Shown one piece after another: positions 15,012-46,316 of a stretch of DNA of 64,000 bases. A program made the translations under genes and the position numbers. The first letter of the stretch is position 1, and each line of letters opens with the position of its first letter. Location of the stretch: assembly GCA_027622715.1 (NCBI GenBank), contig JAQBYN010000014.1:15272-79271 (forward strand), read 5' to 3'. Under the pieces are notes generated by a model. It was not told the origin of the DNA. It saw nothing but the letters and a program-made list of their open reading frames with translations, and did not search any database. Source of the stretch: Pseudomonadota bacterium (lineage in GTDB: Bacteria > Pseudomonadota > Alphaproteobacteria > SHVP01).

Positions 15012-15188
15012 GCGCCTCGGTCCATAATTGAAGCTACAGCTTATTAAAGATGTGTAACCTATGATATTTAATAAGCAATACATATTTGTCATAATATATA
15101 TTATGCGACAATTAGGTATCATGAGGTGTAGCCAGGCCGTCACCCGATCTGTTGTGATCCCTGCCAGCCCCACGCATACTCCCGCGCT

Positions 15189-16004
15189 ATGACGACACTT
15201 TCATCGCTAGACACCGCCTCCGCCATGGACCGTCTCCTCGGAATCATGCGGCAGCTGCGCAGTCCGGACGGCGGTTGCCCGTGGGACATTGAACAGACCT
15301 TCGAGACCATCGCGCCATACACCATCGAGGAAGCCTATGAGGTGCGCGACGCAATCCACAGTGGCGATCGCAACGCGCTAAAGGACGAGCTTGGCGATCT
15401 CCTGTTCCAGGTCGTTTTCCACGCCCAGATGGCCGACGAACAAGACTCATTCAGCTTTGCCGACGTTGCCGAGGCGATCTCGGAGAAAATGATCCGGCGT
15501 CACCCGCACGTCTTCGCTGGCGCCAAAATCGCTAATGCGGCGGCTCAGACCGAGGCTTGGGAAACCCATAAGGCGGCGGAACGCGCCGCAAGTGCCGTCG
15601 GCGACGCGAGCATCCTGGACAACATCCCTGCCGCCCTACCCTCCCTCAAACGCGCCGAGAAGCTGCAAAAACGCGCCGCACGGGTCGGATTCGATTGGCC
15701 GGATATTGCGCCCGTCATAGCAAAAATTGACGAGGAACGGGCCGAATTGGTTGCCGCCGTCGCGACCGGGGATCGGGCCAAGATCGCCGATGAAATGGGC
15801 GACTTGCTGTTTGCGGTCGCCAATTTGTCGCGCCACCTCGATCTCGACCCCGAGGAGTCGCTCCGCTTGACGAACGACAAATTCTTACGCCGTTTCAAAT
15901 ACATAGAGACGTCACTTAAAGGAAAAAATAGAGCCCTAGAAGACTCGTCGCTCGAAGAGATGGAGGCCCTGTGGCAAGCCGCCAAGGGAACCGAACCCAA
16001 ATGA
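15189..16004 (+). CDS. mazG: Nucleoside triphosphate pyrophosphohydrolase MazG
   Basis: Two tandem MazG EExxE motifs (EEAYEVRDAI, ELGDLLFQV; second repeat EERAELVAAV, EMGDLLFAV). Confidence 0.85.
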   Translation: MTTLSSLDTASAMDRLLGIMRQLRSPDGGCPWDIEQTFETIAPYTIEEAYEVRDAIHSGDRNALKDELGDLLFQVVFHAQMADEQDSFSFADVAEAISEKMIRRHPHVFAGAKIANAAAQTEAWETHKAAERAASAVGDASILDNIPAALPSLKRAEKLQKRAARVGFDWPDIAPVIAKIDEERAELVAAVATGDRAKIADEMGDLLFAVANLSRHLDLDPEESLRLTNDKFLRRFKYIETSLKGKNRALEDSSLEEMEALWQAAKGTEPK

Positions 16005-16765
16005 GAGTCGATCTTGCCGGAAAGGTCATTCTTGTCACCGGGGCCACCTCAGGGTTTGGTGACGCAACCGCGCGCCGCCTTCACGCCGCCGGTGCGTTGG
16101 TGATCGCGGCCGGTCGCCGCGCCGACCGACTTGCCGCGCTGGCAGAAGACCTCGGCCCCCGCCTCCACCCGGTCACCCTTGATGTCCGGGACCAGGCGGC
16201 GGTGTTTGCGGCGATTGATGGACTCCCGGCCTCTGTATCGGCCATCTACGGCCTGATCAACAACGCCGGCCTCGCGCTCGGCATGAATTCCGCGGACGAG
16301 GCCGACCTCGACGACTGGAACGACATGGTCGACGCCAACATCAAAGGTCTCATGTACGTCACCCGCGCGGTGCTCCCGGGCATGGTGGCGCGGGGTGCGG
16401 GCCATGTCGTCAACCTCGGCTCGGTTGCGGGCACCTACCCCTACTTCGGCGCCAATGTGTAAGGCGCCTCCAAGGCATTCGTGCACCAGTTCTCGCTCGA
16501 CCTGCGCGCCGACCTGGTTGAAAAGAACATTCGCGTCACGTCGGTCGAGCCTGGGGCCGCCGAAACCGAATTCTCGCTGGTCCGCTTCCACGGCGATGCC
16601 GACAAGGCCAAGGCGACCTACAAGGGGCTCGATCCGATCAGCGCTGACAATGTCGCGGACGTCATCGACTACGTGCTCACCGCGCCCGCCAACATCAATA
16701 TCAACCGGATTGAGATTATGGCAGCGCAGCAAGGGTTCGCTGGTTTCAACTTCGTCCGAAAGTAG
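16001..16765 (+). pseudogene. YdfG-like NADP-dependent short-chain dehydrogenase (SDR) interrupted by an in-frame TAA at the catalytic Tyr codon (16460-16462)
   Basis: Reading frame is continuous across ORFs 15971..16462 and 16481..16765: ...GSVAGTYPYFGANV*GASKAFVHQFSLDLRADL... matches the SDR YxxxK active site (VYGASKAFV), with Y replaced by the stop. N-terminal TGATSGFG Rossmann motif. ATGA overlap with the mazG stop. Confidence 0.6.
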
Positions 16766-16781
16766 GGTCGCGCGGGCGCCG

Positions 16782-17594
16782 CTATGGCGTCTTTGGGAAC
16801 AGCAGCGATCGCAGCGACATCCATGCCTCCTGCGCCGGGGCGAGCAAAATAGGATTGCCCCAAGCAGGCCCTGCGGGCGTGTATGCCGTGCCATCGATAT
16901 GCCGGGCATAGCCGCCCGCCTCGGCATGGAGGAGAACGCTGGCCGCGTGATCCCACGGGTACATCTTGTGAAACAGCGCGAAATCGGACCGACCGGCAGC
17001 CAGGTTGAGGTAGATCTGGACCGCGCAGCGTAACTCTAATGTCGGTGCGATTTGGCCGATGGCCGCGAAGAGCCCCGGCGCGTGCGCCTCATTGGCGAAT
17101 CGAAGATTCAGGCAACCTTGCATCTGCGCCACCGGTTTCGATGCTGCCACCGTCAGCCGAGACCCTGCCAACCACGCGCCACCGCCACATTCCGCGACGG
17201 CCATCTCTTCGGATATAGGGTCGTAGACCCAGGCGTGGGTCGTAACCCCTTTTTGCACCAGCGCGACCAGGATGCCGAACAGGCGAATACCCGCGGCAAA
17301 ATTAGCGGTGCCGTCGATCGGGTCGATCAACCAGACTTGGTCCGCGGTGCCCAGAATGTCTCGCCACACCGGTTCCTCGGTCGCGGTTTCCTCCCCGACG
17401 ACCGCGGCCCCCGGCAGGACCTTCAAAAGACGCTCGGTAAGATAGCGCTCCGACGCGATGTCGGCATCGGTGACGAAGTCGTTGGGCCCTTTGAGCCCGA
17501 TCTCGACGCCCGCGAGGTTCCTGAAAGCGGGCAACACAACGTCACGACCACAGGCTTCAAGGATCGCGGCAACATCAGCAAGATTTGGGTTCAT
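16782..17594 (-). CDS. Inositol monophosphatase family protein (SuhB/HisN-like)
   Basis: FVTDADIASERYL, WLIDPIDGTANF and WVYDPI motifs of the IMPase family. Start at internal Met MNPNLADV. Confidence 0.8.
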   Translation of the reverse strand: MNPNLADVAAILEACGRDVVLPAFRNLAGVEIGLKGPNDFVTDADIASERYLTERLLKVLPGAAVVGEETATEEPVWRDILGTADQVWLIDPIDGTANFAAGIRLFGILVALVQKGVTTHAWVYDPISEEMAVAECGGGAWLAGSRLTVAASKPVAQMQGCLNLRFANEAHAPGLFAAIGQIAPTLELRCAVQIYLNLAAGRSDFALFHKMYPWDHAASVLLHAEAGGYARHIDGTAYTPAGPAWGNPILLAPAQEAWMSLRSLLFPKTP

Positions 17595-17610
17595 GGCCTG
17601 CCCCACGTTC

Positions 17611-17644
17611 AAAGAAAAAGGGCCGCGGTACGGTACCGCGGCCC
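17611..17644 (-). terminator. Rho-independent terminator of groEL
   Basis: Perfect 12-bp inverted repeat GGGCCGCGGTAC-g-GTACCGCGGCCC (17620-17644), followed on the minus strand by UUUUUCUUU (plus-strand aaagaaaaa at 17611-17619). It lies 28 nt past the groEL stop. Confidence 0.65.
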
Positions 17645-17671
17645 TTCGTAACATTTGGCTGAATGCCAGGG

Positions 17672-19519
<1,848 letters not shown>

Positions 19520-19595: not shown

Positions 19596-19892
19596 GTGAC
19601 AGTGACCACTTTATTGAGGTGCTACATGCCAAGCAGCATTGATCTAGAGTTAAAGGGGTATCGGCTCACTACCGCCGAGATCTTCTACCACCTCCCCGAC
19701 TACCCAGCCCTCCTGCAGACCTTCGTGATCCAGAAGTACGATTTAGCGCCCGGATTCCCGGTAATCTCTGACTTCCTCACCTACTGGGAGAACGAGATTG
19801 AGGCGCGTATCCACTCGGTGCGCCTCGCAAACGTGGATCTCATCGGGGCCGGCGACGTCCGCTACGCCAACGGTCGGTTCACCCTTCACTAG
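19596..19892 (+). CDS. Usg-like small protein (PF06233-like); start possibly the second Met at 19626
   Basis: 98-aa ORF ...LKGYRLTTAEIFYHLPDYPALLQTFVIQKYDLAPGFPVISDFLTYWENEIEARIHSVRLANVDLIGAGDVRYANGRFTLH. It resembles alphaproteobacterial Usg proteins as I remember them (GY.LTTAEI.Y..PD.P.LLQT..WQ.YDLAP.FP.L..FL.FW...L.G.LHSV...H). Composition is unlike a GC-shadow ORF. Opposite strand to the flanking groES and groEL. Confidence 0.5.
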   Translation: MTVTTLLRCYMPSSIDLELKGYRLTTAEIFYHLPDYPALLQTFVIQKYDLAPGFPVISDFLTYWENEIEARIHSVRLANVDLIGAGDVRYANGRFTLH

Positions 19893-19899
19893 TGTCGGG

Positions 19900-20187
19900 T
19901 TAGCCGAGGATCCCCATGATGTCGGACTCTTTCATGATCAAGAGGTCCTCGCCTTCGACTTTGACGTCGGTCCCCGACCATTTGCCGAATAGGACGCGAT
20001 CGCCCTTTTTGACATCCAGCTTAATGACCTTGCCACTCTCGTCGCGACCGCCGGGTCCGACAGCGATGATTTCGCCTTCTTGGGGTTTTTCCTGAACGGT
20101 GTCGGGAATGATGATTCCGCCCTTGGTTTTCTGTTCGGAATCGATCCGTTTGACGATGACGCGATCTTGTAGCGGCCTGATCTTCAT
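19900..20187 (-). CDS. groS: Co-chaperonin GroES (10 kDa)
   Basis: [46 protein letters not shown]... is full-length GroES, 95 aa. Confidence 0.95.
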
Positions 20188-20299: not shown

Positions 20300-21616
20300 T
20301 CAATCGGCGGCGATAAGTCTGTCTTCGGCCAACCGCCGTTCAAAGCGGCGCGCATCGACCGGGTAAAGAGCGACGCAAATCGTCGTCATCCCATTGTCCT
20401 CGCGCTTCTCCGTGACATCGCCATGTTCATGGAGCCAGGCAATGGCCGCGCCGTCCTGCGACGGGACCTTGAATGTGCAGGTTTCACGCGCTTTCCGAAG
20501 GTGCCAAGCAATCACCTCTAGCAATCTCGAACACCCCTCACCGGTCGCCGCGGAAACCGCCACCACCTCGTTCGTGCCCGACGCAAGTGCGCCGAGCCGT
20601 TCGTTTTCCTCAGCCGGCAGCAGGTCGATCTTGTTTTGAATCTCAATCACAGGTGTGCCCGCACGTAGGCCGATATCTTCAAGAATGCCGAGGACGTCCG
20701 ATTTCTGATGGTCGTGGTCGGGATGCGCCATGTCGCGCACATGCAAGATCATATCGGCGTCGCGCACTTCTTCGAGGGTGGCAGCAAAGGCGGCCACGAG
20801 GTCGTGCGGCAGATTGGAAATGAAACCCACCGTGTCCGACAAAATGATGCGCTCGCCAGTGGCCAAGGTTAGCCCTCGCATCGTCGGATCTAAGGTGGCG
20901 AACAGCATGTCCTGCGCAAGGACCGACGCAGACGTCAGCCGGTTAAACAACGTTGACTTGCCTGCGTTCGTGTATCCGACGAAAGCCACAGTCGGGAACG
21001 GCACTTTGCGGCGGCTCTCGCGATGTAGGGTCCGCGTTCTGCTGACGCCGCGCAGTTCCTTTTCGAGCCGGATGATGCGATCGGAAATCATGCGGCGGTC
21101 GGCCTCGATTTGCCGTTCGCCCGGTCCGCCCATGAAGCCGAATCCACCGCGCTGGCGCTCCAAGTGGGTCCACGATCGCACCAGCCGGCTTTTTTGGTAA
21201 TTGAGGGCTGCCAGCTCGACCTGCAACGTGCCTTCTCGGGTTCGGGCGCGGGCGCCGAATATTTCGAGGATCAGGCCGGTCCGGTCGATTACCTTGCAAT
21301 CCCAGTCACGTTCAAGATTGCGCTGCTGGCCTGGGGTCAGGGCGGCATCGACGATGACAATTTCGATGTCGCGCTCTTTGAAGGTCGGTTTGAGGTCCGC
21401 CACTTTGCCTGACCCCAACAAAGTGGCCGGGCGTGGGCCGCCCATCGTGATGACCTCACGCAGCCTGACATCGAGGCCGATCGCCTCGGCCAAACCGACG
21501 GCTTCGGCCAGAGAGGATTCAGGCAGTCTTCTTGTGTCCGCCTTGCTCCGAAAATATGGATGCAGAACCGCGGCCGCAGTTGGAATCCCGTCCTTGTGGG
21601 AGATGCCCTCGGTCAA
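20300..21616 (-). CDS. hflX: GTPase HflX
   Basis: HflX N-domain plus G domain: GYTNAGKSTLFNRLT (G1), DTVGF (G3), NKIDLL (G4). Immediately downstream of hfq as in most proteobacteria. Confidence 0.9.
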   Translation of the reverse strand: MTEGISHKDGIPTAAAVLHPYFRSKADTRRLPESSLAEAVGLAEAIGLDVRLREVITMGGPRPATLLGSGKVADLKPTFKERDIEIVIVDAALTPGQQRNLERDWDCKVIDRTGLILEIFGARARTREGTLQVELAALNYQKSRLVRSWTHLERQRGGFGFMGGPGERQIEADRRMISDRIIRLEKELRGVSRTRTLHRESRRKVPFPTVAFVGYTNAGKSTLFNRLTSASVLAQDMLFATLDPTMRGLTLATGERIILSDTVGFISNLPHDLVAAFAATLEEVRDADMILHVRDMAHPDHDHQKSDVLGILEDIGLRAGTPVIEIQNKIDLLPAEENERLGALASGTNEVVAVSAATGEGCSRLLEVIAWHLRKARETCTFKVPSQDGAAIAWLHEHGDVTEKREDNGMTTICVALYPVDARRFERRLAEDRLIAAD

Positions 21617-21634
21617 ATCCGCCGAGCCTGGAGC

Positions 21635-21895
21635 CTATTCCTCACCCTCGCTGGTCTCTTCGGCCGATGGGTCGAATAATTGAACCGGTTGGGCGGGCAT
21701 GACGGTGGATATCGCATGTTTGTACACGAGTTGAACGTGGGCATCGCGGCGCAAAAGGACGCAAAAGTTGTCAAACCAACTGATGACACCTTGCAGCTTG
21801 ACCCCGTTGACGAGAAACACTGTGACGGGAAGTTTGTTCTTTCGAACATGATTTAGGAAGACGTCTTGGACATTTTGAGACTTGTTAGCCGACAT
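21635..21895 (-). CDS. hfq: RNA chaperone Hfq
   Basis: Sm1/Sm2 motifs ([23 protein letters not shown]...VYKHAIST), 86 aa with an acidic C-terminal tail. Confidence 0.95.
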
Positions 21896-22055
21896 TTTGG
21901 CCCTCGTCCTTTCTTGTTTTCACGTCGTCCCCCAAAAAGCCAGTTCTGAGAACCGGCTCACGACGGATTAGTGTTGCCTGCCGTGCAAAACTCTAGCGTG
22001 ACGTGCACCCCAATTCTATGTCGTAGCGCACAGATTGTGCGGATTTAGCGGCACC

Positions 22056-22922
22056 TCACGTTTTCGTGAGTTGAGCATTTCGGACATGGTTTCCGTACAG
22101 CGTAATTAGCCGCGTCGTGGTCGATCCGGGCTTGCCATTGGCAATCACTCGATCGTCGATTTGCACAACGGGGGTTACGAAGCTAGTCGCGCTGGTCACA
22201 AAAGCCTCGCGCGCAGCCATTGCCTCCGCCACCGAAAAGGGTCGCTCGATCACGCGAATGCCCTGCTCTTCTGCAAGTTGTTTGAGTACCAAACGGGTGA
22301 TCCCGCCGAGGATCGCGTTGGCCAATGGGCGCGTTACGAGATTGCCGTCGGTGTCGACGATCCAGGCGTTGCTGGACGCGCCCTCGGTGACCATGCCATC
22401 GCTATCAACCTGCCAAGCCTCATAGGCGTTGGCTTCTCTGGCAGCCTGCTTGGCCAGAATGTTGGGTAGCAGGGAGACCGACTTGATATCGCAACGGCCC
22501 CACCGAATGTCGGGAACCGTAATCACGGTCACCCCGTTGTCTTGATTTTCAGAACTGGGTCGCCCGCCGCGGCGCGCGGTGACGACGACGCTTGGCTCGA
22601 CGTCGTCGGGAAACACGTGGTTGCGGGGCGAGACACCGCGCGTAACTTGGAGATAGACGATACCGCGCTGCAACCGGTTGCGGCGGACCACTTCGTGAAG
22701 AATGACATCGAGGGCCCCCGGCGCCATGGGGCTCGCTATGCCGAGCTCCCCGAGGCTGCGCATTAGGCGATTATGGTGGGCTGGCACATCAACCAGCCGT
22801 CCGCGTTCGATCGTGAAGACCTCATAGACCCCATCGGCAAATTGATAGCCCCTGTCCTCGACATGGACCCCCGCGGCGTGGTGCGGGACGTAGCGGCCAT
22901 TGACGTAAGCGATTCGTGACAC
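22056..22922 (-). CDS. Class IV (D-amino-acid/branched-chain) aminotransferase, Dat-like
   Basis: IAYVNGRYVPHHAAGVHVEDRGYQFADGVYEV...; EAW/VTEGASSNAWIV motif. Start assigned to the GTG (VSRIAYVNG) 3 nt downstream of the trkH stop. The upstream in-frame extension was rejected because it overlaps trkH. Confidence 0.7.
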   Translation of the reverse strand: MSRIAYVNGRYVPHHAAGVHVEDRGYQFADGVYEVFTIERGRLVDVPAHHNRLMRSLGELGIASPMAPGALDVILHEVVRRNRLQRGIVYLQVTRGVSPRNHVFPDDVEPSVVVTARRGGRPSSENQDNGVTVITVPDIRWGRCDIKSVSLLPNILAKQAAREANAYEAWQVDSDGMVTEGASSNAWIVDTDGNLVTRPLANAILGGITRLVLKQLAEEQGIRVIERPFSVAEAMAAREAFVTSATSFVTPVVQIDDRVIANGKPGSTTTRLITLYGNHVRNAQLTKT

Positions 22923-22924
22923 GG

Positions 22925-24379
22925 CTAGCTTCTCCAGTAAGCGCGAGTGAACAGCACCAGCACGACCAATAGCTCCAGGCGGCCGATGATCATGGCAGCA
23001 ATGATCGTCCATTTTGTCGCGTCCGAGAACGCGGGATAGGAAAGCTCGGGCGCCGTCAGCGCTAGACCGGCACCGGCCGTCGATAACGTCGTCGCGGCCA
23101 AAGCCAGGGCACCTTGAAGGTCAAAACCCAGCAAACCGAATACCAATGCCCCTAGGGCAAGGAATGAAAGAAACATCATGAGCTGGCCCCACACGCTCCG
23201 CAGGGTCGGCTCGTCAATGATTTGTCCGCCATAGCGCAGGCGAACGACTCCGTGCGGGTACGACAGGCGCGACAGTTCGCGTCCAGCCAGTTTGAAGAAA
23301 ACCGAAAGTCTCATCAGGCGCATGCCGCCCGCGGTCGATCCTGTGGCACCGCCGATTAACATCAGGCCAATCAGGATCACCGGCACAATCACGGGCAGCG
23401 CGCCGCTCGCGGCGCTGCTGCTCGCGCTGTATCCCGTCGTGGTCAGGGCGGAAATGACGTCGAACGCGGCAGTGCGCACGCTGCTACCCAGGCCCAGGCT
23501 CTGCCCCGCAGCCAGGGCGCCGACGACGATCGCAGACGCAATCAATACGATACCAAGGAGGTACCGCGTCTCGGCATCTTTCAGAATCGGCCCGTACCGC
23601 CCGCGGGTGACCGACCACAGCATGGTAAAGTTCAACGCGCCCACCAGCATAAAGATCATCAGGACGATCTCGACCCCGACACTATCGTACGCGGCGATGC
23701 CGACTGTTCGCGTACTGAAACCGCCGGTCGAGATGGTTGAAAACGCATGCGCGGCGGCGTCGAATGGCGCCATCCCAACAACCACGAGGGCGAAAATGCA
23801 GAGGCCGGTGAGGCCGACGTAGATCCACCACATGGACCGTGCCGCACGTTCGGTACGGCCCAGCAGCGTGTCGCGGTCACCCCGCGGCATTGGCGAGACG
23901 AACAGGTTCATCCCGCCGACGCCGCCAAAAGAGAGCAGCACAACCGCGAACAAAATAATAGCAAACCCGCCGAGCCACTGAAGAATCGCGCGCCAAAGCA
24001 GGATTCCCCGCGGTACCGATTCAAGGTCCGTCAGGATTGTCGCGCCGCTCGTCGAAAACCCGGACAGTGCTTCGAAATACGCGTCGACGAAGGAGGCAAA
24101 AATCCCCGAAAGAACAAAAGGGATCGCGGCCAACGCCGGAACGAGTGTCCACAACAACGTCGCTGTTAGGAACCCGCCCCTCAGATCGATTCGGTGTTCG
24201 GTCCCGCGTGTGGCGATAATCGCCGTACCACCGACAAAGAGCGTCAGCCCGCTGCCCACCAAGAAAGTGGCACCTGTTGCGTCCTCAGCAACGCCGAACG
24301 ATAAAGCGGCAGGCAACAACATGAACGCCGCAAGGATAGCTGCGGCCCAGCCGAGAACGTTGACCTGCGTAGTGAACAT
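22925..24379 (-). CDS. trkH: Trk-system potassium uptake membrane protein TrkH
   Basis: 484 aa, polytopic. Repeated selectivity-filter-like GFSTSG/GFSTRT/TTTGYS/STAGAG motifs characteristic of TrkH/KtrB. Confidence 0.85.
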   Translation of the reverse strand: MFTTQVNVLGWAAAILAAFMLLPAALSFGVAEDATGATFLVGSGLTLFVGGTAIIATRGTEHRIDLRGGFLTATLLWTLVPALAAIPFVLSGIFASFVDAYFEALSGFSTSGATILTDLESVPRGILLWRAILQWLGGFAIILFAVVLLSFGGVGGMNLFVSPMPRGDRDTLLGRTERAARSMWWIYVGLTGLCIFALVVVGMAPFDAAAHAFSTISTGGFSTRTVGIAAYDSVGVEIVLMIFMLVGALNFTMLWSVTRGRYGPILKDAETRYLLGIVLIASAIVVGALAAGQSLGLGSSVRTAAFDVISALTTTGYSASSSAASGALPVIVPVILIGLMLIGGATGSTAGGMRLMRLSVFFKLAGRELSRLSYPHGVVRLRYGGQIIDEPTLRSVWGQLMMFLSFLALGALVFGLLGFDLQGALALAATTLSTAGAGLALTAPELSYPAFSDATKWTIIAAMIIGRLELLVVLVLFTRAYWRS

Positions 24380-24403
24380 TGGGCGCGGGGTTTCGGCCTC
24401 GGC

Positions 24404-25780
24404 TCAGAAAAAGTCGAGCCGGACGGCAAACAACTTTTCGACTTTCTTCACCATGTCCCGGGTCGCGAAAACGATCACGCGGTCGCCGGTCTCGATAATA
24501 GTGTCTCCGCGCGGGATAATGACTTCGTCGCCGCGCGCCAAAGCCCCGATGATGACCCCGGCAGGCAGTTTCACGTCATGCAGTGATTTGCCGGACAGCG
24601 GGGAGGCATCCAAAGTCTCGGCTTCGATGATCTCGGCCATGCCGTCGCGCACCGAATGAACTGCGCGAATTCTGCCGCGGCGAATGTGCTGAAGAATGCG
24701 CGAAACAGTAATTGCGCGCGGATTGACAACGGCGTCGATCCCCAGCGATCGCACCAAGGGGCCGTAGTCCATGTTATTGACCAGCGTCGTCGCGCGCTTG
24801 GCGCCTTCTCGCTTGGCCAACAGTGAGCTCAAAATATTGACCTGATCGTCGTTGGTTACCGCGATCACCGCATCGGCTTCTTTCACATTGGCCTCGGCCA
24901 ATATTTCGGCCGCCAGCGAATCTCCGTAGATCACGACAGCTCGTTCGAGTTGGTCGGCGACCCGCTCTGCACGTTCCCGGCTCACTTCGATGAGTTTGAG
25001 CCGGATGTCTGGAATCTCATCGATGATCTGTTTGGAAACGAACAAGCCAATGTTGCCGCCGCCGATGACAACAATGCGTCTGGCTTCTTTCTCTTCGTGG
25101 CCAAAGGCAGCCATTGCCCGCTGTACTTGCCTGGTATCGACGGTGAAATAGACTTCGTCGCCGACCAATATTTGATCGTCGCCGCCGGGTGTGATGATCC
25201 CCTCGCGGCGTACGATTCCAACGACCCGCATGTGCAGATCCGGAAACAGCTCGGTCAACTGGCGCAAAGGCGTGTCGATAATTGGGCAATTTTCCTCAAC
25301 TGAGACCGCGACAACGCGCACCTTGTCATCGACAAAACTAACCATGTCAGAGGCACCGGGAACGTTCAGCCGGCTGGTGATTGCGCGTGCGACTTCGATC
25401 TCGGGCGAAATAATAACGTCGATCGGCAGGTGATTGCGCGAGAACAGGTTTTGCCAGGCTGGGTCAAGGTAAGTCTGCGCGCGAATGCGTGCGATCTTGG
25501 TGGGCGTCTCGAATAGCGAATGGGCGACCTGGCAGGCCACCATATTAATTTCGTCGTTTTGGGTGACTGCAACGATCATCTCGGCGTCGCGCGCGCCTGC
25601 TTGTTCCAGAACGTCAGGGTGGGAGGCATATCCTTCGATCGCGCGAACATCGAGCGTCTCGTTCATTTTTTGGATGGTTTCTGGTGACTGATCGACGATC
25701 GTGACGTCGTTATTCTCCGACGCCAGTTGTCGCGCGATGCTGGACCCCACGAGCCCTGCTCCACAAACGATGATTCTCAT
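24404..25780 (-). CDS. trkA: Trk-system potassium uptake protein TrkA (tandem RCK/NAD-binding domains)
   Basis: MRIIVCGAGLVGSSIARQL (GxGxxG) and second IVVIGGGNIGLFVSKQI. 458 aa. Confidence 0.9.
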   Translation of the reverse strand: MRIIVCGAGLVGSSIARQLASENNDVTIVDQSPETIQKMNETLDVRAIEGYASHPDVLEQAGARDAEMIVAVTQNDEINMVACQVAHSLFETPTKIARIRAQTYLDPAWQNLFSRNHLPIDVIISPEIEVARAITSRLNVPGASDMVSFVDDKVRVVAVSVEENCPIIDTPLRQLTELFPDLHMRVVGIVRREGIITPGGDDQILVGDEVYFTVDTRQVQRAMAAFGHEEKEARRIVVIGGGNIGLFVSKQIIDEIPDIRLKLIEVSRERAERVADQLERAVVIYGDSLAAEILAEANVKEADAVIAVTNDDQVNILSSLLAKREGAKRATTLVNNMDYGPLVRSLGIDAVVNPRAITVSRILQHIRRGRIRAVHSVRDGMAEIIEAETLDASPLSGKSLHDVKLPAGVIIGALARGDEVIIPRGDTIIETGDRVIVFATRDMVKKVEKLFAVRLDFF

Positions 25781-25815
25781 TGGTGCTGGCCTGCGCCTTT
25801 ATCCTGGCCCACCTG

Positions 25816-27210
25816 CTAAGCCCGGCCGTTCCCGCCGGCGACGCCGAGCGCTTTTAGCTTTCGGTGAAGCGCCGAGCGTTCCATACCAACGAAAGAAGCG
25901 GTACGCGAGATGTTTCCGCCAAATCGATTGATTTGCGCGAGCAGATATTCCCGTTCGAACACTTCTCTAGCCTCGCGCAGGGGCATGGCCATTACCTCAC
26001 CATTGTCTTCTTGGCGAAGCGACGAGACGCCGTTGGAACGTATCTCCGGCGGCATTGTCTCGGCGTCGATCGCGGTTTCAGGACCGCCAGGCGCCATGAT
26101 CAACAGGCGCTCAATCATATTGCGTAACTCGCGCACATTGCCTGGCCAGTCCTTTGCTTGCAGGACGGCCATCGCGTCGTCGGCAATCACCCGCGCCGGC
26201 AGTCCGGTCGATTGCGCCATGCGTTCCATGAAATAGCGGGCCAACAGTGGGATGTCCTCGCGTCGTTCGGACAGGGGCGGCACCCGGACCGGGACGACGG
26301 CTAAACGATGAAAAAGGTCTTCACGGAATCGCCCGGCTGCGATTTCGTCCGACAGATTGCGGCTCGATCCGCTGATCACCCGCACGTCGACGCGGACTTG
26401 CTCGCGACCACCCAGGCGCGCGAACGTCTGTTCCTGCAGGACGCGAAGGATTCGGCCCTGGGTCTCGAGGGGCATGTCGGCCGCTTCATCGACGAACAGC
26501 GTGCCTTGGTGTGCCTGCTCGAAAATGCCGATCTTCCGAGGGCTATTCGGTCCGGTCGCGTTCGCTTCCGCGCCAAAGAGTTCCAGATCGATTGTTTCGG
26601 GTGCCATACGTGCCGCGTTCATGACGACGAATGGCCCGGTGGCGCGCCGCGAGCGGTTGTGGAGCAGCCGGGCGGCGACTTCTTTGCCGCTGCCGGCGGG
26701 GCCCGTGATGAGGACGCGGCTCCCGGTCGGTGCGACTTTCTCAATGGCGGCGCGCATTGTGTTGATTGCGGCAGTACCGCCGATAAGGTCGGATTCTTGT
26801 CCAAAACGCAGCCGGAGTTCTTCGTTTTCCCGGCGAAGCCGGGCCGCCTCGATGGCCCGCGATACGACTAAGAGGAGACGGTCGGCCGCAAAGGGTTTCT
26901 CAACGAAATCGTAGGCACCCCGTTTTATCGCGGATACCGCGGTCTCGATATTCCCGTGTCCGCTGATCATGATGACCGGCAGGTTTGGATACTCAGATCG
27001 GATCACGCCGAGGAGTTCGAGCCCGTCGAGTTCGCTGTTTTCCAGCCATATGTCGAGAACGACCAACGTCAGTTCGTGTTGCTCGAGCGCGAGAAGGGCC
27101 GTGCGGCTGTCCGTCGCCGTGCGCGCCGCATAGCCTTCATCCGAGAGAATCCCCGAAAGCGATTCTCGGATATCTGCTTCGTCATCGACAATGAGAATGT
27201 CGCGCGCCAA
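25816..27210 (-). CDS. ntrX: Sigma-54-dependent response regulator NtrX
   Basis: REC domain (ILIVDDEADIRESL...LVVLDIWL), AAA+ sigma-54 activator domain (VLITGPAGSGKEVAARLLH; GAFEQAHQGTLFVDEAADM) and C-terminal HTH. Confidence 0.85.
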   Translation of the reverse strand: MARDILIVDDEADIRESLSGILSDEGYAARTATDSRTALLALEQHELTLVVLDIWLENSELDGLELLGVIRSEYPNLPVIMISGHGNIETAVSAIKRGAYDFVEKPFAADRLLLVVSRAIEAARLRRENEELRLRFGQESDLIGGTAAINTMRAAIEKVAPTGSRVLITGPAGSGKEVAARLLHNRSRRATGPFVVMNAARMAPETIDLELFGAEANATGPNSPRKIGIFEQAHQGTLFVDEAADMPLETQGRILRVLQEQTFARLGGREQVRVDVRVISGSSRNLSDEIAAGRFREDLFHRLAVVPVRVPPLSERREDIPLLARYFMERMAQSTGLPARVIADDAMAVLQAKDWPGNVRELRNMIERLLIMAPGGPETAIDAETMPPEIRSNGVSSLRQEDNGEVMAMPLREAREVFEREYLLAQINRFGGNISRTASFVGMERSALHRKLKALGVAGGNGRA

Positions 27211-27243
27211 ACTTCTGCCTCCCCTACCCTCGAACCGTTCTTT

Positions 27244-29517
27244 TTATTCTGCCGCGGCGTCCAGTGGTGCCGCCACGTGCGAGTCATTGTGTCGTGGAAA
27301 GACAAGGGAAATGCGCGCACCGCCCTCGGGCCCATCTTCAAGAATCAATCGGCCGCGATGCTCTTCCATTATTTTCTTCACGATAGCAAGGCCCAAGCCC
27401 GTCCCTTTTTTTCGAGTCGTTACGTAAGGTTCTGTTAGACGCGCGCGCTGTTCTTTCGGCAAGCCTCGACCGTTGTCCTCGACACACAAGCGAACGAGAT
27501 CACCGTCCTCGCTAATGTCGACGCGAATACGGCCCGGCCGCATGTCGCCTTCCTCTTGCCGTCCTTCAATCGAGTCGGCGGCGTTCTGCATAAGATTGAT
27601 GACTGCCTGATTGATCTGGCCCCGGTCGCAATAGACCGTCGGGCCGACCGGCGGCAGACTGGTTTCGTACACGATATCGGGCGAACCGGACTGCTGCAGA
27701 AAGCTTACGTGCTCAACAATCTTGCGCAGGTCTTCGGCACGAAACTCTGGCGCCGGCATCCGGGCGAACTTGGAGAACTCGTCAACCATGCGGCCGATAT
27801 CGTCAACCTGTCGCATGATCGTATCGGTGCATTGACGGAATATGTCTTGGTCGGTGGTAATTTGATCGTGGTACTTGCGCCAAATCCGGTCGGCCGAAAG
27901 TTTGATCGGCGTCAGCGGATTCTTGATCTCGTGGGCGATACGCCGCGCGACGTCCGCCCAAGCGGCGCGGCGCTGTGCGGAGACAAGCTCCGATATGTCG
28001 TCAAAGGTCACGACAAACCCCGATTGCGGGTCGGCGATCGGATCGCTAACGATCCGGACATGCAGTTCGCGAACCTGCCCCTTGCGGCTAATCGTAACCT
28101 CGCCGTCGATCTGACGTCCGTTGCTGAGAAGCGCGCTGTCCAGGAGATCGGCCATCTCCGGCAAGAGTTCGCGAAAGTTTTGCCCAATCAATGTTTCCCG
28201 CGGCATGCCGAGCAGGTCGGTGGCGGACCGATTCGGCAGCGTGATCCGTCCCGTCGAGTCCAATCCAAGAACGCCGGCTGAAACTCCACCGAGCACGGCC
28301 TCGGTAAATCGGCGGCGTTCGTCGAGTTGCTGATTGGCCTCGATAAGTTCCCCGCGTTGTGCCCGGAGCTGGTTGGTCATGCGATTGAAGGCGCGGCTGA
28401 GGGTCCCGAATTCGTCGTCCTCTCGGCCTTCGGCAACGCGGACGTCGAGATCGCCCGAACGAACCCGCTCTGTTGCCCCCACGAGCGACGAGATTGGCTG
28501 CACCAACCTATTGGCGAAGACCAACGCGAGCCAGATCGCGATGCTCAAGAGCAAGAGCGCGAGCAGGATGAAAACCGTCGCAAGGCTGATTTCGACGCGC
28601 GATCGTTCGCTTTCAAGGCGGTTGTAGGACTCGGTCCGGCGCCGGGTCTCCTCAGCGAAGCCTAGGACCAGAGGATCGACAAGACGCCCGACGTACATAT
28701 AGGTGTCGCTCAATGTGTCGAGCCGCATCAGGGCTCGGACGTTTTGTTCGCCGAAACGCAGTAGAACGACATCGCCCGAACGCGCGCGCGTCATGATGGT
28801 CTCATCGTCGATCAAGCTCATATCTTGACTGAGCCGCGTGCGCGCCAGGATGATGCCGCGGCCATCGAAAATCATGGCTTCGGGCAGGCCGCGCGCGTCG
28901 GCGAGGAATTGCAACGTGCCAGTCAGCCGCGCGGGATTGTTGCGCGCGGCGTAAAGGCCTTGGCGCATGGCATCAGCCATTGCGCGCACGTCACCTTCGA
29001 TGGTTTTCCTATTCTCCTCAACATAGGCGTTGGCCACCGCGACGGAGTTGTTGATCGCGGACCGCGTGTTTTCGCTGAACCAAAGGTTGACGCCAACGTT
29101 GATAAACAAAGCCGATACGACGGCAACCACGATCGTTGGCACCATCGCCACCAAGGCAAACATGGCAACCAGTCGGACGTGGAGGCGAGAGCCGGCAAAT
29201 CCGCGGCGCCGCGCGACAACCAGTCGAACGAACCTGGCGGAGACGGCACTCAACAAGGAAAGCAACAGGATGCTGTCGACCAACAGCAATGGTCGAACTG
29301 CGGCACGGTCGCTACTGAACGGCGCCACGCCAATGACCGCGAGGTAGGTCAGCGCGCCAGCGGCAATCGCCGCGACCGCAAGTCCCAGCACCAGCTGGCG
29401 CTCAAGACCGACGCGCTGCGCCCACGCAAAAAACCGGCCGAGCTGCTCGTGGGTCTGTGTCTCAGATGCCATACGCTGTGACCATTTGGTCCAAGGCACT
29501 GTGCCCGTGAACCACAA
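27244..29517 (-). CDS. ntrY: Sensor histidine kinase NtrY (TM/HAMP/PAS/HisKA/HATPase)
   Basis: N-terminal TM helices, H-box IAHEIKNPLTPIKLSADRI, N/G boxes (LMQNAADS; GTGLGLAIVKKIMEEHRG). Position between ntrC and ntrX. Confidence 0.85.
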   Translation of the reverse strand: MWFTGTVPWTKWSQRMASETQTHEQLGRFFAWAQRVGLERQLVLGLAVAAIAAGALTYLAVIGVAPFSSDRAAVRPLLLVDSILLLSLLSAVSARFVRLVVARRRGFAGSRLHVRLVAMFALVAMVPTIVVAVVSALFINVGVNLWFSENTRSAINNSVAVANAYVEENRKTIEGDVRAMADAMRQGLYAARNNPARLTGTLQFLADARGLPEAMIFDGRGIILARTRLSQDMSLIDDETIMTRARSGDVVLLRFGEQNVRALMRLDTLSDTYMYVGRLVDPLVLGFAEETRRRTESYNRLESERSRVEISLATVFILLALLLLSIAIWLALVFANRLVQPISSLVGATERVRSGDLDVRVAEGREDDEFGTLSRAFNRMTNQLRAQRGELIEANQQLDERRRFTEAVLGGVSAGVLGLDSTGRITLPNRSATDLLGMPRETLIGQNFRELLPEMADLLDSALLSNGRQIDGEVTISRKGQVRELHVRIVSDPIADPQSGFVVTFDDISELVSAQRRAAWADVARRIAHEIKNPLTPIKLSADRIWRKYHDQITTDQDIFRQCTDTIMRQVDDIGRMVDEFSKFARMPAPEFRAEDLRKIVEHVSFLQQSGSPDIVYETSLPPVGPTVYCDRGQINQAVINLMQNAADSIEGRQEEGDMRPGRIRVDISEDGDLVRLCVEDNGRGLPKEQRARLTEPYVTTRKKGTGLGLAIVKKIMEEHRGRLILEDGPEGGARISLVFPRHNDSHVAAPLDAAAE

Positions 29518-29532
29518 TGTTGCATTATTGCA

Positions 29533-30975
29533 TCACTTGGGCGCGCGCACTACCTCAATTTGTAGCTCGCGGATTTTCTTCCGCAACGTGTTCCTATTCA
29601 GGCCAAGCAAGCTTGCGGCTTTGATCTGATTACCGCGCGTCGCGCGCAGACTCAGGGCGATCAACGGTCGCTCTACCTCGTTCAGGATGCGTTGGTAAAC
29701 CCCGTCGGGCGGAAGCGCCTCGCCGTGCGCCGCGAAGTAGGCCTCGAGATGCCGTTCGACGGCGCCACTCAGGCTGTTGTCACCGTCGATCTGTTGCTGA
29801 CGGACATCGCCGGCGAGTTCACGTTCGACCGCCGACGCCGGCACGGTCTCGTCTGCCGTCAGCGCGGCAAGACGGCGCATCAGGTTCTCCAACTCGCGGA
29901 CGTTGCCGGGCCAACGGTATTCTCGCAGCCGCTTGAGGGCATCGCCGGTGAGTCGCTTTGGCGGTAAACCTTCTTTTTCCGCGCGCAGTAGGAAATGCCG
30001 CACCAGATCGGGAATGTCGTCGGTCCGCTCGCGCAATGGCGGCAACCGCATCGGCACCACGTTCAAGCGGTAAAACAAATCCTCGCGAAACAATCCCTGG
30101 TCAACTAGGCGACGCAACGAGCGATGCGTTGCGGCGACAATGCGCACGTCGGCGCGGCGGGCCTGCCGGCTGCCTACAGCAGAATACTCGCCCTCTTGCA
30201 GGACGCGTAGCAGCCGGGTCTGCGCTTCGATCGGCATATCGCCGATTTCGTCGAGAAACAACGTGCCGCCATCGGCTTGCTCAAATTTGCCGCCGTGACG
30301 CATCGTGGCGCCGGTGAAAGCGCCCTTCTCGTGTCCAAAGAGCTCGCTTTCGATCAATTCGCGTGGAATCGCGGCCATGTTCACCGCGACGAAGGGTCGG
30401 TTACGGCGGCGGCCGAAGTCGTGGAGGGCTCTTGCGACAAGTTCCTTTCCGGTTCCCGATTCGCCCGAAATCAAGACGGTCAGATCTGTCGCCGTCAGCC
30501 GTCCCATGACGCGGTAGACGTCTTGCATTGCGGCCGAACGTCCAACCATCGGCATGACTTCGTCGTCGTCCTGGCGTGTCGACGGGGCCACCGGCGGACG
30601 CCGCGCGCCACCCTCTAGCGCTCTGTTAACAATGGACACTAATTCATTGATATCAAATGGTTTTGGAAGGTATTCATAGGCGCCACGCTCGGTCGCGCGC
30701 AGCGCCGTCATCATGGTATTGCGGGCGCTCATGACGATAACCGGCACGTCAGGTCGGGCCTTACGAATCCGCGGCAAGAGGTCGAGACCGTCTTCGTCGG
30801 GCATCACCACATCGGTAATGACCAGGTCACCTTCGCCAGCCTCGATCCATTGCCACAGCGTCGCGGCGGTGCCCGTTGTGCGCACTGCATACCCGGCGCG
30901 GGCAAGCGACTGGCTGACGACCTTACGGATAGACGCGTCATCGTCCGCGACCAGGATGGTTCCCTCGCCGCTCAC
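29533..30975 (-). CDS. ntrC: Nitrogen regulation protein NR(I), NtrC (sigma-54 activator)
   Basis: [16 protein letters not shown] domain, [15 protein letters not shown] Walker A, GAFTGA sigma-54 contact motif (EKGAFTGA), C-terminal Fis-type HTH. Start assigned to the GTG overlapping the ntrB stop (GTGA). Confidence 0.88.
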
Positions 30976-32093
30976 GATGATGACCGCTCCTCGTTTGCTG
31001 CAATCGGGAGCCGTAGGCGAAACACGGTGCGGCCTGGCTCTGACTCGCATTCGATGAGCCCGCTATGGTCCCCGATGATCTTGGCGACCAGCGATAGGCC
31101 AAGCCCCGTGCCGGAACGCTTGGTCGTGACAAACGGGTCAAACATGTGCCGTCGAATATCGTCCGATATGCCCGGGCCATTGTCCTGGATGGCAACCTCC
31201 AGCGGCAGATGCACCTGCTCTTGCGTGCCCGGCACCGCCAGACGCAAGCCGTGCCTGTAGGCAGTCGACAGCTGAATCTCGCAAGGCAAACCGCTACAGG
31301 CCTCGACCGCGTTTTTGATCAGGTTGAGGACGACCTGGACCAGTTGGTCGCGATTGCCCAATAACGGCGGCAACGATGGGTCGTAGCGTTCTTCGAAAGC
31401 GGTGTCGGCGGCAAAGCCCGCCTGGGCCACCCGGCGCGCATGATCCAGCACGAGATGGACATTGACGGGCTGACGCTCCAGCGGCCGCGGATCGGAAAAG
31501 CCCTCCATGCTGTCGATGAGGCTGCAAATACGGTCGGTCTCGTCGCGGATCAGGCTCGTCAATTCGCGGTCTTCGGTGCTCGCGTTCATTTCGAGCAACT
31601 GCGCCGCGCCGCGAATACCGGCCAACGGGTTCTTGACCTCGTGGGCCAGCACCGCCGCCATTCCAGTAACGGATCGCGCGACATCGCGGTGGCTCAACTG
31701 ATGTCCCATGCGTGACGCCATCGTCAGTTCGCGGATCGTCAGCAACAAACTTCCCGGCGCATCGGGTAACGGCGTCAGCTGAAAGCTGACGTCGCGGCGG
31801 CCCATCCGTGGTGTGTAAAGTTCGGCATCGTGCTCGGCGACGCTGCTACCACTCGCCCGCGCCTTTTTCATGAGCCCCAGCAAGGTCCCATCGCGCGGGG
31901 CAACAGCGGTGATGCCTTGGCCGACCAGAACGCCGGCGCTGGCGCCAAAGAACTGTTCTGCGGCCGGGTTGATGTACTCGATGGATTCGCTGGGGCCGAC
32001 AACCAACAGCGGATCGGGTACCGCTGCCAGGATCGCGAAGGCGTCGACGATCCCGGGTTCGTCAAGGGCAGCCGACCGGCGGTCGTGAATCAC
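30972..32093 (-). CDS. ntrB: Nitrogen regulation sensor kinase NtrB (NR(II))
   Basis: PAS region then H-box [20 protein letters not shown] box [11 protein letters not shown] boxes [21 protein letters not shown] 30972..32591 is trimmed to the GTG ([19 protein letters not shown]...) that overlaps the dusB stop, because the upstream extension overlaps dusB. Confidence 0.85.
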
Positions 32094-41044: not shown

Positions 41045-42460
41045 TTAGAAGTGGAGTGCATGGCCGTACGCGTCAAGGACCGATTCGTGCATCATTTCCG
41101 ACAACGTCGGATGCGGGAACACGGTGTGCATCAGGTCGGCCTCGGTCGTCTCCAACGTTTTGGCAATCGTGTAGCCTTGGATTAATTCGGTGACTTCGGT
41201 GCCAATCATATGGGCGCCCAGTAATTCGCCGGTCTTGGCGTCAAACACCGTTTTGATCAGCCCTTCGGAATCGCCCAGGGCGATGGCCTTGCCGCTGCCG
41301 ATAAACGGGAACTTGCCGACTTTGACCTCGTAGCCTTTTTCCTTAGCCGCTTTTTCGGTGAGGCCGACGCTCGCCACCTGTGGGTTGCAATAGGTGCACC
41401 CCGGAATGTTGAGCGTCTTCATGGGCTGAACGTCTTTTACGCCGGCGATTTTCTCGACGCAGATCACAGCCTCATGCATCGCCTTGTGGGCGAGCCACGG
41501 CGCGCCGACCAGATCGCCAATGGCGTAGATGCCGGGTACGCCGGTCTCCAACCATTCGTTGACCACGACATGGCCACGCTCGACCTTGATCGCGCTGACC
41601 GTTTCAAGACCGCAGTCCTCGACGTTGCCGGCAATGCCAACCGCTAAGATGACCTTCTCGGCGGTCACGGTTTGGGCCGGCGTTTTGCTGCCCTTCATCG
41701 GTTCAACGGCCGCTTCGTAGCCACCCTTGGCAGGTTTTAGCGACGCAACCGAAGCGCCGGTGATGATCTTCATCCCTTGCTTCTCGAACTGTTTGCGGGC
41801 GAACGCCGATATGTCCTCGTCCTCCACCGGCAACACGCGGTCCAGCACTTCGACCACCGTCACCTCGGCCCCCAACGTGCGGTAGAAACTCGCGAACTCG
41901 ATGCCGATCGCGCCCGAGCCAATCACCAGCAACGACTTTGGCATCGTCTCCGGCACCATCGCCTCTTTGTAAGACCAAATGCCCTTGCCATCGGCTTTGA
42001 TGGTCGGTAGGTCACGGGCCCGAGCGCCGGTTGCCAGAATGATGTGCTTAGCCGAAATATCGGCAATCGCCTTGCCGTCCTTGGTCACGGCGATCTTGCC
42101 CGCGCCGTTGAGTTTCCCGTGCCCGTCGATCACATCGACCTTGTGCTTTTTCAACAGATGTCCGACGCCACCTGAGAGTTGCTTCGATACTTTGCGGCTG
42201 CGCTGAACGATCTTCTTGATGTCGAAGGAAATGTCTTTGGCGCTGAAGCCGAATTCGTCCAACCGGTGCAGCAAATGGTAAATCTCGGATGAGCGCAGCA
42301 GGGCCTTGGTCGGGATGCATCCCCAATTTAGGCAGATACCGCCGAGGTGTTCGCGTTCGATGCACACCGTCTTCAACCCGAGTTGCGCAGCGCGGATTGC
42401 CGCGACGTAGCCGCCCGGACCGCCGCCGAGAATCGCCACATCGTATTGTTGTGCTGCCAT
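41045..42460 (-). CDS. lpdA: Dihydrolipoyl dehydrogenase (E3)
   Basis: FAD-binding GGGPGGYVAA, redox-active disulfide GGICLNWGCIPTK, second GxGxxG IGSGAIGIEF. Confidence 0.95.
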   Translation of the reverse strand: MAAQQYDVAILGGGPGGYVAAIRAAQLGLKTVCIEREHLGGICLNWGCIPTKALLRSSEIYHLLHRLDEFGFSAKDISFDIKKIVQRSRKVSKQLSGGVGHLLKKHKVDVIDGHGKLNGAGKIAVTKDGKAIADISAKHIILATGARARDLPTIKADGKGIWSYKEAMVPETMPKSLLVIGSGAIGIEFASFYRTLGAEVTVVEVLDRVLPVEDEDISAFARKQFEKQGMKIITGASVASLKPAKGGYEAAVEPMKGSKTPAQTVTAEKVILAVGIAGNVEDCGLETVSAIKVERGHVVVNEWLETGVPGIYAIGDLVGAPWLAHKAMHEAVICVEKIAGVKDVQPMKTLNIPGCTYCNPQVASVGLTEKAAKEKGYEVKVGKFPFIGSGKAIALGDSEGLIKTVFDAKTGELLGAHMIGTEVTELIQGYTIAKTLETTEADLMHTVFPHPTLSEMMHESVLDAYGHALHF

Positions 42461-42521
42461 AACTTCCTACAAACGTTCGGGCTGCGTACAGCCGTCTAGT
42501 GGACGCGTGACCGACCCCGCG

Positions 42522-43850
42522 CTACAACAGCATCGTCACCGGGTCTTCAATGAAGCCCTTAAATGCCTGCAACAGCTCGGCGCCTATCGCGCCATCCACC
42601 ACGCGGTGATCGCACGACAAGGTGCACGACATCATCGTCGCAATCGACAGCGCGCCATCCTTGACCACCGGTCGCTGCTCGCCCTTACCCACGGCCAAGA
42701 TCGCACCTTGCGGCGGATTGATGACGGCGGCAAATTCTTTGATGCCGTACATGCCGAGATTGGAGATCGAGAACGTACCGCCCTGGTATTCCTCGGGTAG
42801 TAGCTTGCCCTCATGAGCCCGTCCCGCAAGGTCCTTCATTTCGTTGGAGATTTCGGCCAACCCCTTTTGATCGGCGTTGCGCACCACCGGTGTAATCAAC
42901 CCGTTGGCGACCGCCACCGCGACCGAGATATCGACGCTCGTGTAGCGCAGCGTCGCAGCGTCGGTCCAACTCGCATTCGCACTTGGCACTTTCTTCAGTG
43001 CCAAGGCCGCTGCGCGAATAATGAAGTCGTTAACCGACAGCTTGAACGCCGCGTCTTTCGCACCGCGCTCATTGAGCTCCTTGCGCATCGCCATTAGCTT
43101 GTCGATGTCGCAATCGACGGTCATATAAAAATGCGGCACCAGCTGTTTGGATTCGGTCAGCCGTCGCGCGATTACCTTGCGCATCGTGTTGTTGGGCACC
43201 TCAACATAGGCCGCGCCCGGTTGAATGGGTGCGGCGGCACGTTGCGGCAGCGCCGCGGCGGTTGCCGCGCGTTGCACGGGTGCGCCGCCCGATAGCGCGC
43301 TCTCGATATCAGCCTTGACGATCCGCCCGCCGGGACCGCTACCGGCCATTGACGCCAGGTCGAGCCCGGACTGCGCGGCCATGCGCCGCGCCAACGGGCT
43401 CGCCACGACTCGGTCGCTGCCGCTGACCGCGGCCAACCGGGGTGCGGGTGCGGTGACGGGTTGCTCGGCAACCGGTGCCGCCGCGGGTGCTGCTTGAGGG
43501 GCCGGAACCGCCGACGGTTCTGCTTGAGGTGTCGGAACCGGCGCAGGCGCCACGGCAGGCTTGGCCGCCACGCCGGTATCGAAACCACTTAGCGCGCCGG
43601 CGTCCTCGCCCTCTTCCAACAGAACGGCGATGACGGTGTTGACCTTCACCCCCTCGGTGCCTTCCGCGACGAGAAGTTTGCCGACGGTGCCGTCATCGAT
43701 GGCTTCGACTTCCATGGTGGCCTTGTCGGTCTCGATTTCGGCGATGACATCGCCCGACGAAATCGCCTGGCCTTCTTTGACCAACCATTTGGCGAGCGTG
43801 CCCTCTTCCATGGTGGGCGACAGCGCGGGCATCGTAATCGAAATCGGCAT
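42522..43850 (-). CDS. pdhC: Pyruvate dehydrogenase E2 (dihydrolipoamide acetyltransferase)
   Basis: N-terminal lipoyl domain ([22 protein letters not shown]...ETDKATME), Ala/Pro linker, E3-binding domain, catalytic DHRVVDG. Start at internal Met of ORF 42522..43958. Confidence 0.9.
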
Positions 43851-43860
43851 CTCGGGTTCC

Positions 43861-45255: not shown

Positions 45256-45272
45256 CGGCTGGTCCCCTGGCG

Positions 45273-46316
45273 CTAGGCTGCGGCGTCCGCCGCAACGAGA
45301 ATGTCGGTATAAAGTTCCGAGAGATCCGGCTCAGGACTCTGCTGGGCAAAATCCGCGGCGTCGGTGACGATTGCTTTGACGTCCTTGTCGATCTCTTTCA
45401 GCGCCTCTTCGGTTGAAGCGCCGCTGCGCAAGATTAGATCGCGCACATGATCGATCGGGTCGCGCTCTTTGCGCACCTTGTTGACCTCGTCTCGGGTCCG
45501 GTATTTGGCCGGATCCGACATCGAATGGCCACGGTAACGGTAAGTCATGGCCTCCAGGATGTAGGGGCCCTTGCCCGCGCGCATATGTTTGACCGCTTTC
45601 GCCACCGCGTCGCGCACCGCCAGCACGTCCATCCCGTCACACTCGCCGCCGGGGATGCCGAACGCATCGCCGCGTTTGTGGAGTTTGGTTTGGGCTGTCG
45701 AACGCTCGGTCGAGGTGCCCATGGCGTAGTGGTTGTTCTCGATGATGTAGAGCACCGGCAGCTTCCACAGCGCCGCCATGTTGAACGACTCGTAGACTTG
45801 GCCCTGGTTCGCCGCGCCGTCGCCGAAATAGGTCAGCGTCACCTCGTCATTGCCCAGGTATTGATTGGCAAAGGCGATGCCGGTGCCCAGCGCGGTCGGC
45901 GCCCCGACAATCCCGTGCCCGCCGTAAAAATTCTGTTCGCGGGCGAACATGTGCATCGACCCGCCCTTGCCCTTGGAATAGCCGTCAACGCGGCCGGTCA
46001 ACTCGGCCATAACGCCGCGCGGTTCCATCCCGCAGGCCAGCATGTGGCCATGGTCGCGGTAGGTGGTGATGACGGCGTCGGCTGCGGTGGTGGCGGCGCG
46101 GGCGCCGACCACGACGGCCTCTTGGCCGATATAGAGATGGCAAAATCCGCCGATCAGGCCCATCCCATACATTTGGCCGGCTTTTTCCTCGAAGCGCCGG
46201 ATCAGCAGCATGTCGCGGTAGAACTTGAGGAGTGCCTCGGGCGTGGCGTCGACCGTTGGCGTGGGGTCGGCCTTGCGCCGAGCTTTAGGTTTGTCGGACG
46301 CAGGCGCTTTTGCCAT
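45273..46316 (-). CDS. pdhA: Pyruvate dehydrogenase E1 alpha subunit
   Basis: ThDP motif GDGAANQG...; [11 protein letters not shown] phosphorylation-loop region; 347 aa. Confidence 0.9.

Follow-up and report, generated by a model that had tools for sequence, protein, structure and literature searches.

A premature TAA in a YdfG-like short-chain dehydrogenase (SDR) gene, located within a 64-kb stretch of DNA (the window), is very probably a genuine loss-of-function nonsense allele that arose recently in a population of an uncultured alphaproteobacterium. Translation confirmed the claim of the original prediction that the 254-codon frame of this gene is broken only once, by this stop (Table 1). 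The context of the stop in the translated frame is ...GSVAGTYPYFGANV*GASKAFVHQF... (also given as ...NLGSVAGTYPYFGANV*GASKAFVHQF...), and the sequence pattern TTCGGCGCCAATGTGTAAGGCGCC stands for the TAA allele, as opposed to its ...TAC... version.

TABLE 1 Coordinates of the mazG-SDR locus and its flanks, in window positions
Feature	Position	Strand	Basis or content
AT-rich spacer with sigma-70-like promoter matches, upstream of mazG	15015..15125	+	Consensus scan
mazG (nucleoside triphosphate pyrophosphohydrolase)	15189..16004	+	NCBIfam PRK09562, 357 bits (cutoff, 208)
YdfG-like classical SDR gene, now very probably a pseudogene	16001..16765	+	Translation; Pfam, NCBIfam, and PDB matches; intact 254-aa orthologues at 98% identity
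N-terminal fragment ORF, 153 aa	16001..16462	+	Keeps TGxxxGxG, NNAG, Asn113, and Ser141; lacks Tyr154 and Lys158
Premature TAA at the Tyr154 codon (TAC in close relatives)	16460..16462	+	Same TAA in L081 to L084
Untranslated C-terminal remnant	16463..16765	+	Holds Lys158 (AAG, 16472-16474) and a mechanical ORF from GTG (16481-16765, 94 aa)
Inositol-monophosphatase-family (IMPase) gene, convergent	16782..17654	-	Pfam Inositol_P, E 4e-39; ORF map

Family searches used the repaired protein, in which Tyr replaces the stop. Its residues 8 to 191 match Pfam adh_short (PF00106) with an E value of 7e-51, which places it among the classical SDRs, and translation gives TGATSGFG at residues 13 to 20, corresponding to TGxxxGxG, and NNAG at residues 87 to 90; G14, G18, G20, and N87 to G90 are invariant in 62 homologues. 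The best NCBIfam match by a wide margin is the YdfG equivalog PRK10538 (NF007829), whose score of 308 bits stays below the curated cutoff of 411. Hence, "YdfG-like," the label first given to this gene, is the right wording, while orthology to YdfG would not be proven even for the repaired protein. Among solved structures, 2NWQ (E 1e-81) and E. coli YdfG, 3ASU (E 7e-76), come closest. The Asn-Ser-Tyr-Lys tetrad of the family is not translatable in the window copy: Asn113 and Ser141 are present, the Tyr154 codon is TAA, and Lys158 lies past the stop, suggesting that the locus is a pseudogene of the SDR family and not a functional member.

The TAA replaces the codon of Tyr154, the tyrosine of the YxxxK motif (YGASK), and its difference from the Tyr codons is confined to the wobble position. 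Across the 62 aligned homologues, which extend to 59% identity, Tyr154, Lys158, Ser141, and Asn113 are all invariant, and in the alignment to 3ASU, residue 154 falls on Tyr147 (YGATK motif), in agreement with the earlier placement of the stop on the catalytic tyrosine. Relatives read TAC or TAT at this codon, meaning that the stop is indeed a single C-to-A (or T-to-A) change away from Tyr. Does a stop on the catalytic codon itself call for a special explanation? In the intact gene, 48 single-base changes create a stop, distributed over 39 codons, and 2 of the 48 are in codon 154, indicating that a random nonsense mutation falls there about 4% of the time. The strike on the catalytic residue had been considered noteworthy, but it is better regarded as a mild coincidence, noticed post hoc, that needs no special explanation. 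There is no support for reading meaning into the position itself, since nonsense mutations in most of this single-domain protein would be equally inactivating.

The first question is whether the codon has been read correctly. In favor of a consensus error of sequencing or assembly at the A of 16462, with TAC or TAT as the true codon, the TAA is one base away from Tyr in a gene that is otherwise perfectly conserved; moreover, the window derives from metagenomic data, and no isolate genome is found among its relatives. Against such an error, TAA was recovered at the homologous position in all four public contigs on which the truncated products are encoded; these contigs come from two BioSamples, two SRA runs, and two assembly sources: two ENA scaffolds, L081 (scaffold_2859, 36.8 kb, SAMN03444961) and L083 (scaffold_818, 65.5 kb, SAMN03444948), and two Logan contigs, L082 (4.7 kb, SRR2027830) and L084 (1.7 kb, SRR2027816). 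Each of the two BioSamples or runs yielded the TAA by both assembly sources. L081 and L084 match the window exactly; an A at 15116 is common to L082 and L083, which additionally carry one private single-nucleotide polymorphism (SNP) apiece (13046 and 15063). The contigs differ from one another at these three positions, and all five TAA-bearing sequences are identical within the SDR gene. The contigs are therefore not copies of one assembly but reflect two or more population consensus sequences that differ slightly, and since neither ENA scaffold spans the whole window, the window itself derives from yet another assembly. Furthermore, an exact look-up in a collection of about 15 billion proteins found no copy of the repaired protein carrying Tyr154, whereas both truncated products (153 aa from ATG 16001 and 94 aa from GTG 16481) have exact matches in the public protein collection. 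It is very unlikely that two pipelines would repeat one consensus error in two samples, and the base-call or assembly error that the original prediction had allowed for is thus rejected as highly improbable. A minority wild-type allele could coexist within the samples, the TAA being known as the consensus base only. The two BioSamples may also be closely related, for example, by originating from the same site or time series, which would make them weaker independent witnesses of fixation but not of the base call.

The surrounding sequence does not resemble that of a low-quality assembly either. A metagenome pattern scan yielded no further TAA carriers but did provide the closest intact relative, L087, which is comparable with the window over 11.5 kb (13.8 to 25.3 kb). 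Protein-by-protein comparison across this interval showed that the genes other than the SDR are full length and colinear with those of L087, and no other disrupted gene was found, which argues against an artifact as well as against a generally decaying genome or a poor assembly. A scan for in-frame stops flanked by high-GC3 sequence returned mostly adjacent same-frame genes and antisense frames. One apparent second case, a premature stop in the neighboring IMPase gene (290 versus 302 aa), was dismissed: distant relatives end as the window does, pointing to a stop loss in the sister lineage. The IMPase ends in ...LLFPKTP* in the window and in L004, L002, and L001. In L087, L080, and L088 to L093, its stop has changed from TAG to TCG, adding 12 residues and creating a 20-nt convergent overlap with the SDR 3' end (window 16746-16784).

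When did the stop arise? Codon 154 is TAC in L087 (95.9% DNA identity over 11.5 kb), L080 (91.7% over 1,339 nt, without gaps), L088 to L093, L004, and L001 and TAT in L002, and the intact 254-aa gene is present in the same gene order on at least nine other contigs. No stop-bearing orthologue was found outside this population: a tyrosine codon, TAC or TAT, stands in every intact relative read, and all 62 homologous proteins carry Tyr. The lineage of the window therefore carries a derived stop, and an ancient pseudogene, which a stop shared among orthologues would have indicated, does not fit the aligned codons. The frame is thus disrupted relative to its intact orthologues by a change present in four contigs. 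Compared with L087, the SDR gene shows 34 nucleotide differences, comprising 29 synonymous changes, 4 nonsynonymous changes, and the stop, with a dN/dS of 0.043; on the 3' side of the stop, there are 15 synonymous and no nonsynonymous differences. Neither an indel nor a second stop was found in the SDR frame relative to L080 and L087. After polarization with more distant proteins, only A21D and E108D are assigned to the window branch, compared to about 47 nonsynonymous changes that neutral evolution along the whole branch would give, so any neutral period would be roughly limited to less than about 13% of the branch if the branches are taken to be equally long. Signs of relaxed selection, such as a raised dN/dS or further lesions, were not observed (dN/dS, ~0.04) and are expected only in older pseudogenes. 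From these comparisons, the lesion appears to be young, with purifying selection evident gene-wide, including after the stop; the absence of decay is consistent with youth but is not proof of it. The view that the stop is a very recent inactivating mutation gains support from this combination of Tyr in all intact relatives, low dN/dS, and an undecayed downstream frame.

The intact sequence past the stop, however, also fits continued selection, for example, through readthrough. A few ribosomes might read through the TAA, by near-cognate decoding or with an ochre-suppressor tRNA encoded elsewhere in the genome; if Tyr were reinserted, wild-type enzyme would be made at a low level, and the gene would be down-regulated rather than dead and still under selection. 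When UAA is decoded by near-cognate tRNAs, the residue inserted is typically Tyr, Gln, or Lys. The lack of nonsynonymous changes and secondary lesions past the stop is what continued selection would give, and the TAA departs from the Tyr codons at the wobble position only; a very young pseudogene, however, predicts the same undecayed pattern. Other observations speak against a leaky stop. A recoded stop would be conserved in orthologues, but the TAA is not found in any orthologue outside this population. In a crude GC3-based gene map, TAA ends about 18 of the 65 ORFs in the window, including metG and tatD, which rules out reassignment of this codon and, with TAA closing about one-quarter of the ORFs, argues against general suppression. 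The 104 nt from the stop (16457-16560) fold no more stably than shuffled sequences (z = -0.07), giving no sign of a readthrough-stimulating RNA structure, and an Rfam scan of the window gave no matches. No suppressor tRNA was found in the 64-kb window, in which the sole tRNA call is a probably spurious tRNA-Cys. In addition, UAA followed by G, as here, is an efficient termination context in the bacteria studied. On balance, a leaky stop is unlikely. The more specific form of it, in which the allele is kept because tRNA-Tyr or an ochre suppressor restores Tyr at the catalytic position and the stop serves as a strong translational attenuator, would, if true, explain the lack of decay past the stop, but we regard it as quite improbable.

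Another possible explanation is a genuinely split gene, in which the 153-aa fragment and a 94-aa fragment, reinitiated at GTG 16481, form a two-chain enzyme or have taken separate roles. The restart signals are present as originally described: AAGG at 16472-16475 is followed by a 5-nt spacer and GTG at 16481-16483, 19 nt past the stop, a geometry compatible with reinitiation, and gene callers annotate both pieces as genes. Yet the six codons that separate the stop from the GTG (16463-16480) encode GASKAF, including Lys158, and a reinitiated product would begin at Val161. Tyr154 would be in neither piece and Lys158 would fall in the untranslated gap, leaving any product without both key catalytic residues. 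AAGG and GTG are also accounted for by the codons of the conserved Lys158 and Val161: among four aligned intact relatives, AAGG is present in three (L080, L001, and L002) and GTG in three (L080, L004, and L002). The motif is thus common in relatives with an intact gene and is explained by coding constraint. Naturally split genes retain all essential residues and show a conserved split; here, the residues are lost, and no relative was found with the gene as two ORFs. Moreover, SDRs consist of a single Rossmann domain, and alignment to 3ASU places the cut in its core. A functional split gene is therefore extremely improbable, and this part of the original prediction was not sustained.

The genomic setting of the gene is conserved. 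The SDR ATG (16001-16003) overlaps the mazG TGA (16002-16004) as ATGA, an overlap kept in L087, the closest intact relative, consistent with the translational coupling to mazG first read from the sequence. The adjacency of mazG and the SDR gene is conserved down to relatives with 57 to 63% SDR identity, and the shared gene order is metG, tatD, an MBL-fold gene, mazG, and the SDR gene, followed by the convergent IMPase gene and groEL. Upstream of mazG, a sigma-70 consensus scan found three sites, compared to 0.8 expected from shuffles, in an AT-rich spacer that is the putative promoter of the mazG-SDR pair. This spacer stands out within a window of about 62% GC; the L083 scaffold ends there, and two of the three SNPs among the TAA-bearing contigs, at 15063 and 15116, fall there. 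Since the next gene is convergent, the SDR gene is the last of its transcription unit, and the stop should have no polar effect downstream. No paralogous SDR able to compensate was found within the 64-kb window. In the comparison of the window with L080 (15859-17197), dS is 0.17 for the SDR gene, 0.53 for the mazG tail, and 0.46 for the IMPase part. Recombination, constraint at the codon or RNA level, and sampling noise in such short segments are possible reasons for the low SDR value.

Two further arrangements downstream of this locus were observed. About 480 nt separate the groES gene (19900-20187, minus strand; Pfam Cpn10) from groEL (17672-19420, minus strand), and this gap holds a Usg-like gene on the plus strand (19596-19892; PF06233, E 2e-33). 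The same groES/Usg-like/groEL order is found in L088 and L090 and is unusual compared to the normally contiguous groESL operon. The (GGM)n tail at the C terminus of GroEL, an ordinary feature of this protein, is encoded by a tandem repeat at 17678-17735 whose period is 9/18 nt. Elsewhere in the window, the regions 20300-31050 and 41045-46316 provide a core-chromosome setting typical of Alphaproteobacteria, with hflX, hfq, a class IV aminotransferase gene, trkH, trkA, ntrX/ntrY-like genes, and a pyruvate dehydrogenase cluster, whose E1-beta gene (43861-45255, minus strand) encodes an N-terminal lipoyl-type domain; the pyruvate dehydrogenase assignments were made by reading translations, not by profile searches. 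The ARAGORN tRNA-Cys (GCA) call at 63246-63323 on the minus strand lies inside a high-GC3 ORF of 827 aa (61438-63921, minus strand) and is probably a false positive, with no Rfam tRNA at the gathering threshold.

What would a recent nonsense allele mean for the product of the gene? A single C-to-A transversion, from TAC to TAA, would have occurred in the lineage of this population. The mazG-SDR pair would be transcribed from the AT-rich spacer, and translation, coupled to mazG through the ATGA, would stop at codon 154. The predicted fragment of 153 residues would keep the NADP-binding half of the Rossmann fold, with TGxxxGxG, NNAG, Asn113, and Ser141, but would lack Tyr154, Lys158, helix alphaF, the last beta-strands, and the C-terminal substrate-closing region. 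In SDR enzymology, Tyr serves as the catalytic acid/base, with its pKa lowered by Lys. On this basis, the fragment would carry out no hydride transfer and would probably be unstable, and the loss of about 40% of the fold along with Tyr154 and Lys158 should abolish function. The TAA allele would then be the consensus in at least two environmental samples, in a gene whose remainder is not yet decaying.

For annotation, a nonsense pseudogene means that the 153-aa and 94-aa ORFs should be merged and flagged as one YdfG-like SDR pseudogene and not as two proteins. The locus is a clear case of a nonsense allele caught before further decay, in a natural uncultured population whose consensus it forms in two samples. 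Together with the conserved pairing of mazG and the SDR gene, it suggests that at least one lineage can do without an accessory dehydrogenase that is well conserved otherwise. The finding bears on no open mechanistic question and has little import beyond correct annotation: a recent nonsense pseudogene is an ordinary phenomenon of a known kind.

Comparison with known systems leads to the same reading. E. coli YdfG (3ASU/3ASV), an NADP-dependent 3-hydroxy acid/L-serine dehydrogenase and malonic semialdehyde reductase, and the probable SDR 2NWQ of Pseudomonas aeruginosa belong to the same fold and family, with full-length alignment over about 250 aa, and share with the window copy TGxxxGxG, NNAG, the positions of the Asn-Ser-Tyr-Lys tetrad, and a conserved C-terminal segment. 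Unlike YdfG, the window copy carries TAA where the catalytic Tyr codon would be and scores below the equivalog cutoff (308 versus 411 bits), and in its clade the SDR gene is translationally coupled to mazG, which to our knowledge is not the arrangement of ydfG in E. coli. Programmed readthrough or recoding, such as UGA-selenocysteine, likewise places an in-frame stop at an active-site position of a conserved enzyme frame; the window codon, in contrast, is TAA instead of TGA or TAG, is not conserved, is followed by no structure, and is an ordinary terminator in the window. The window allele resembles the young nonsense pseudogenes catalogued in many bacterial genomes, which likewise show a single point mutation, intact close orthologues, a dN/dS that is not raised, and no secondary lesions. 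Nothing substantive sets it apart from them: all that is unusual is the strike on the codon of the catalytic tyrosine, a 4% chance, and the allele is known as the consensus in two environmental samples rather than from a cultured strain.
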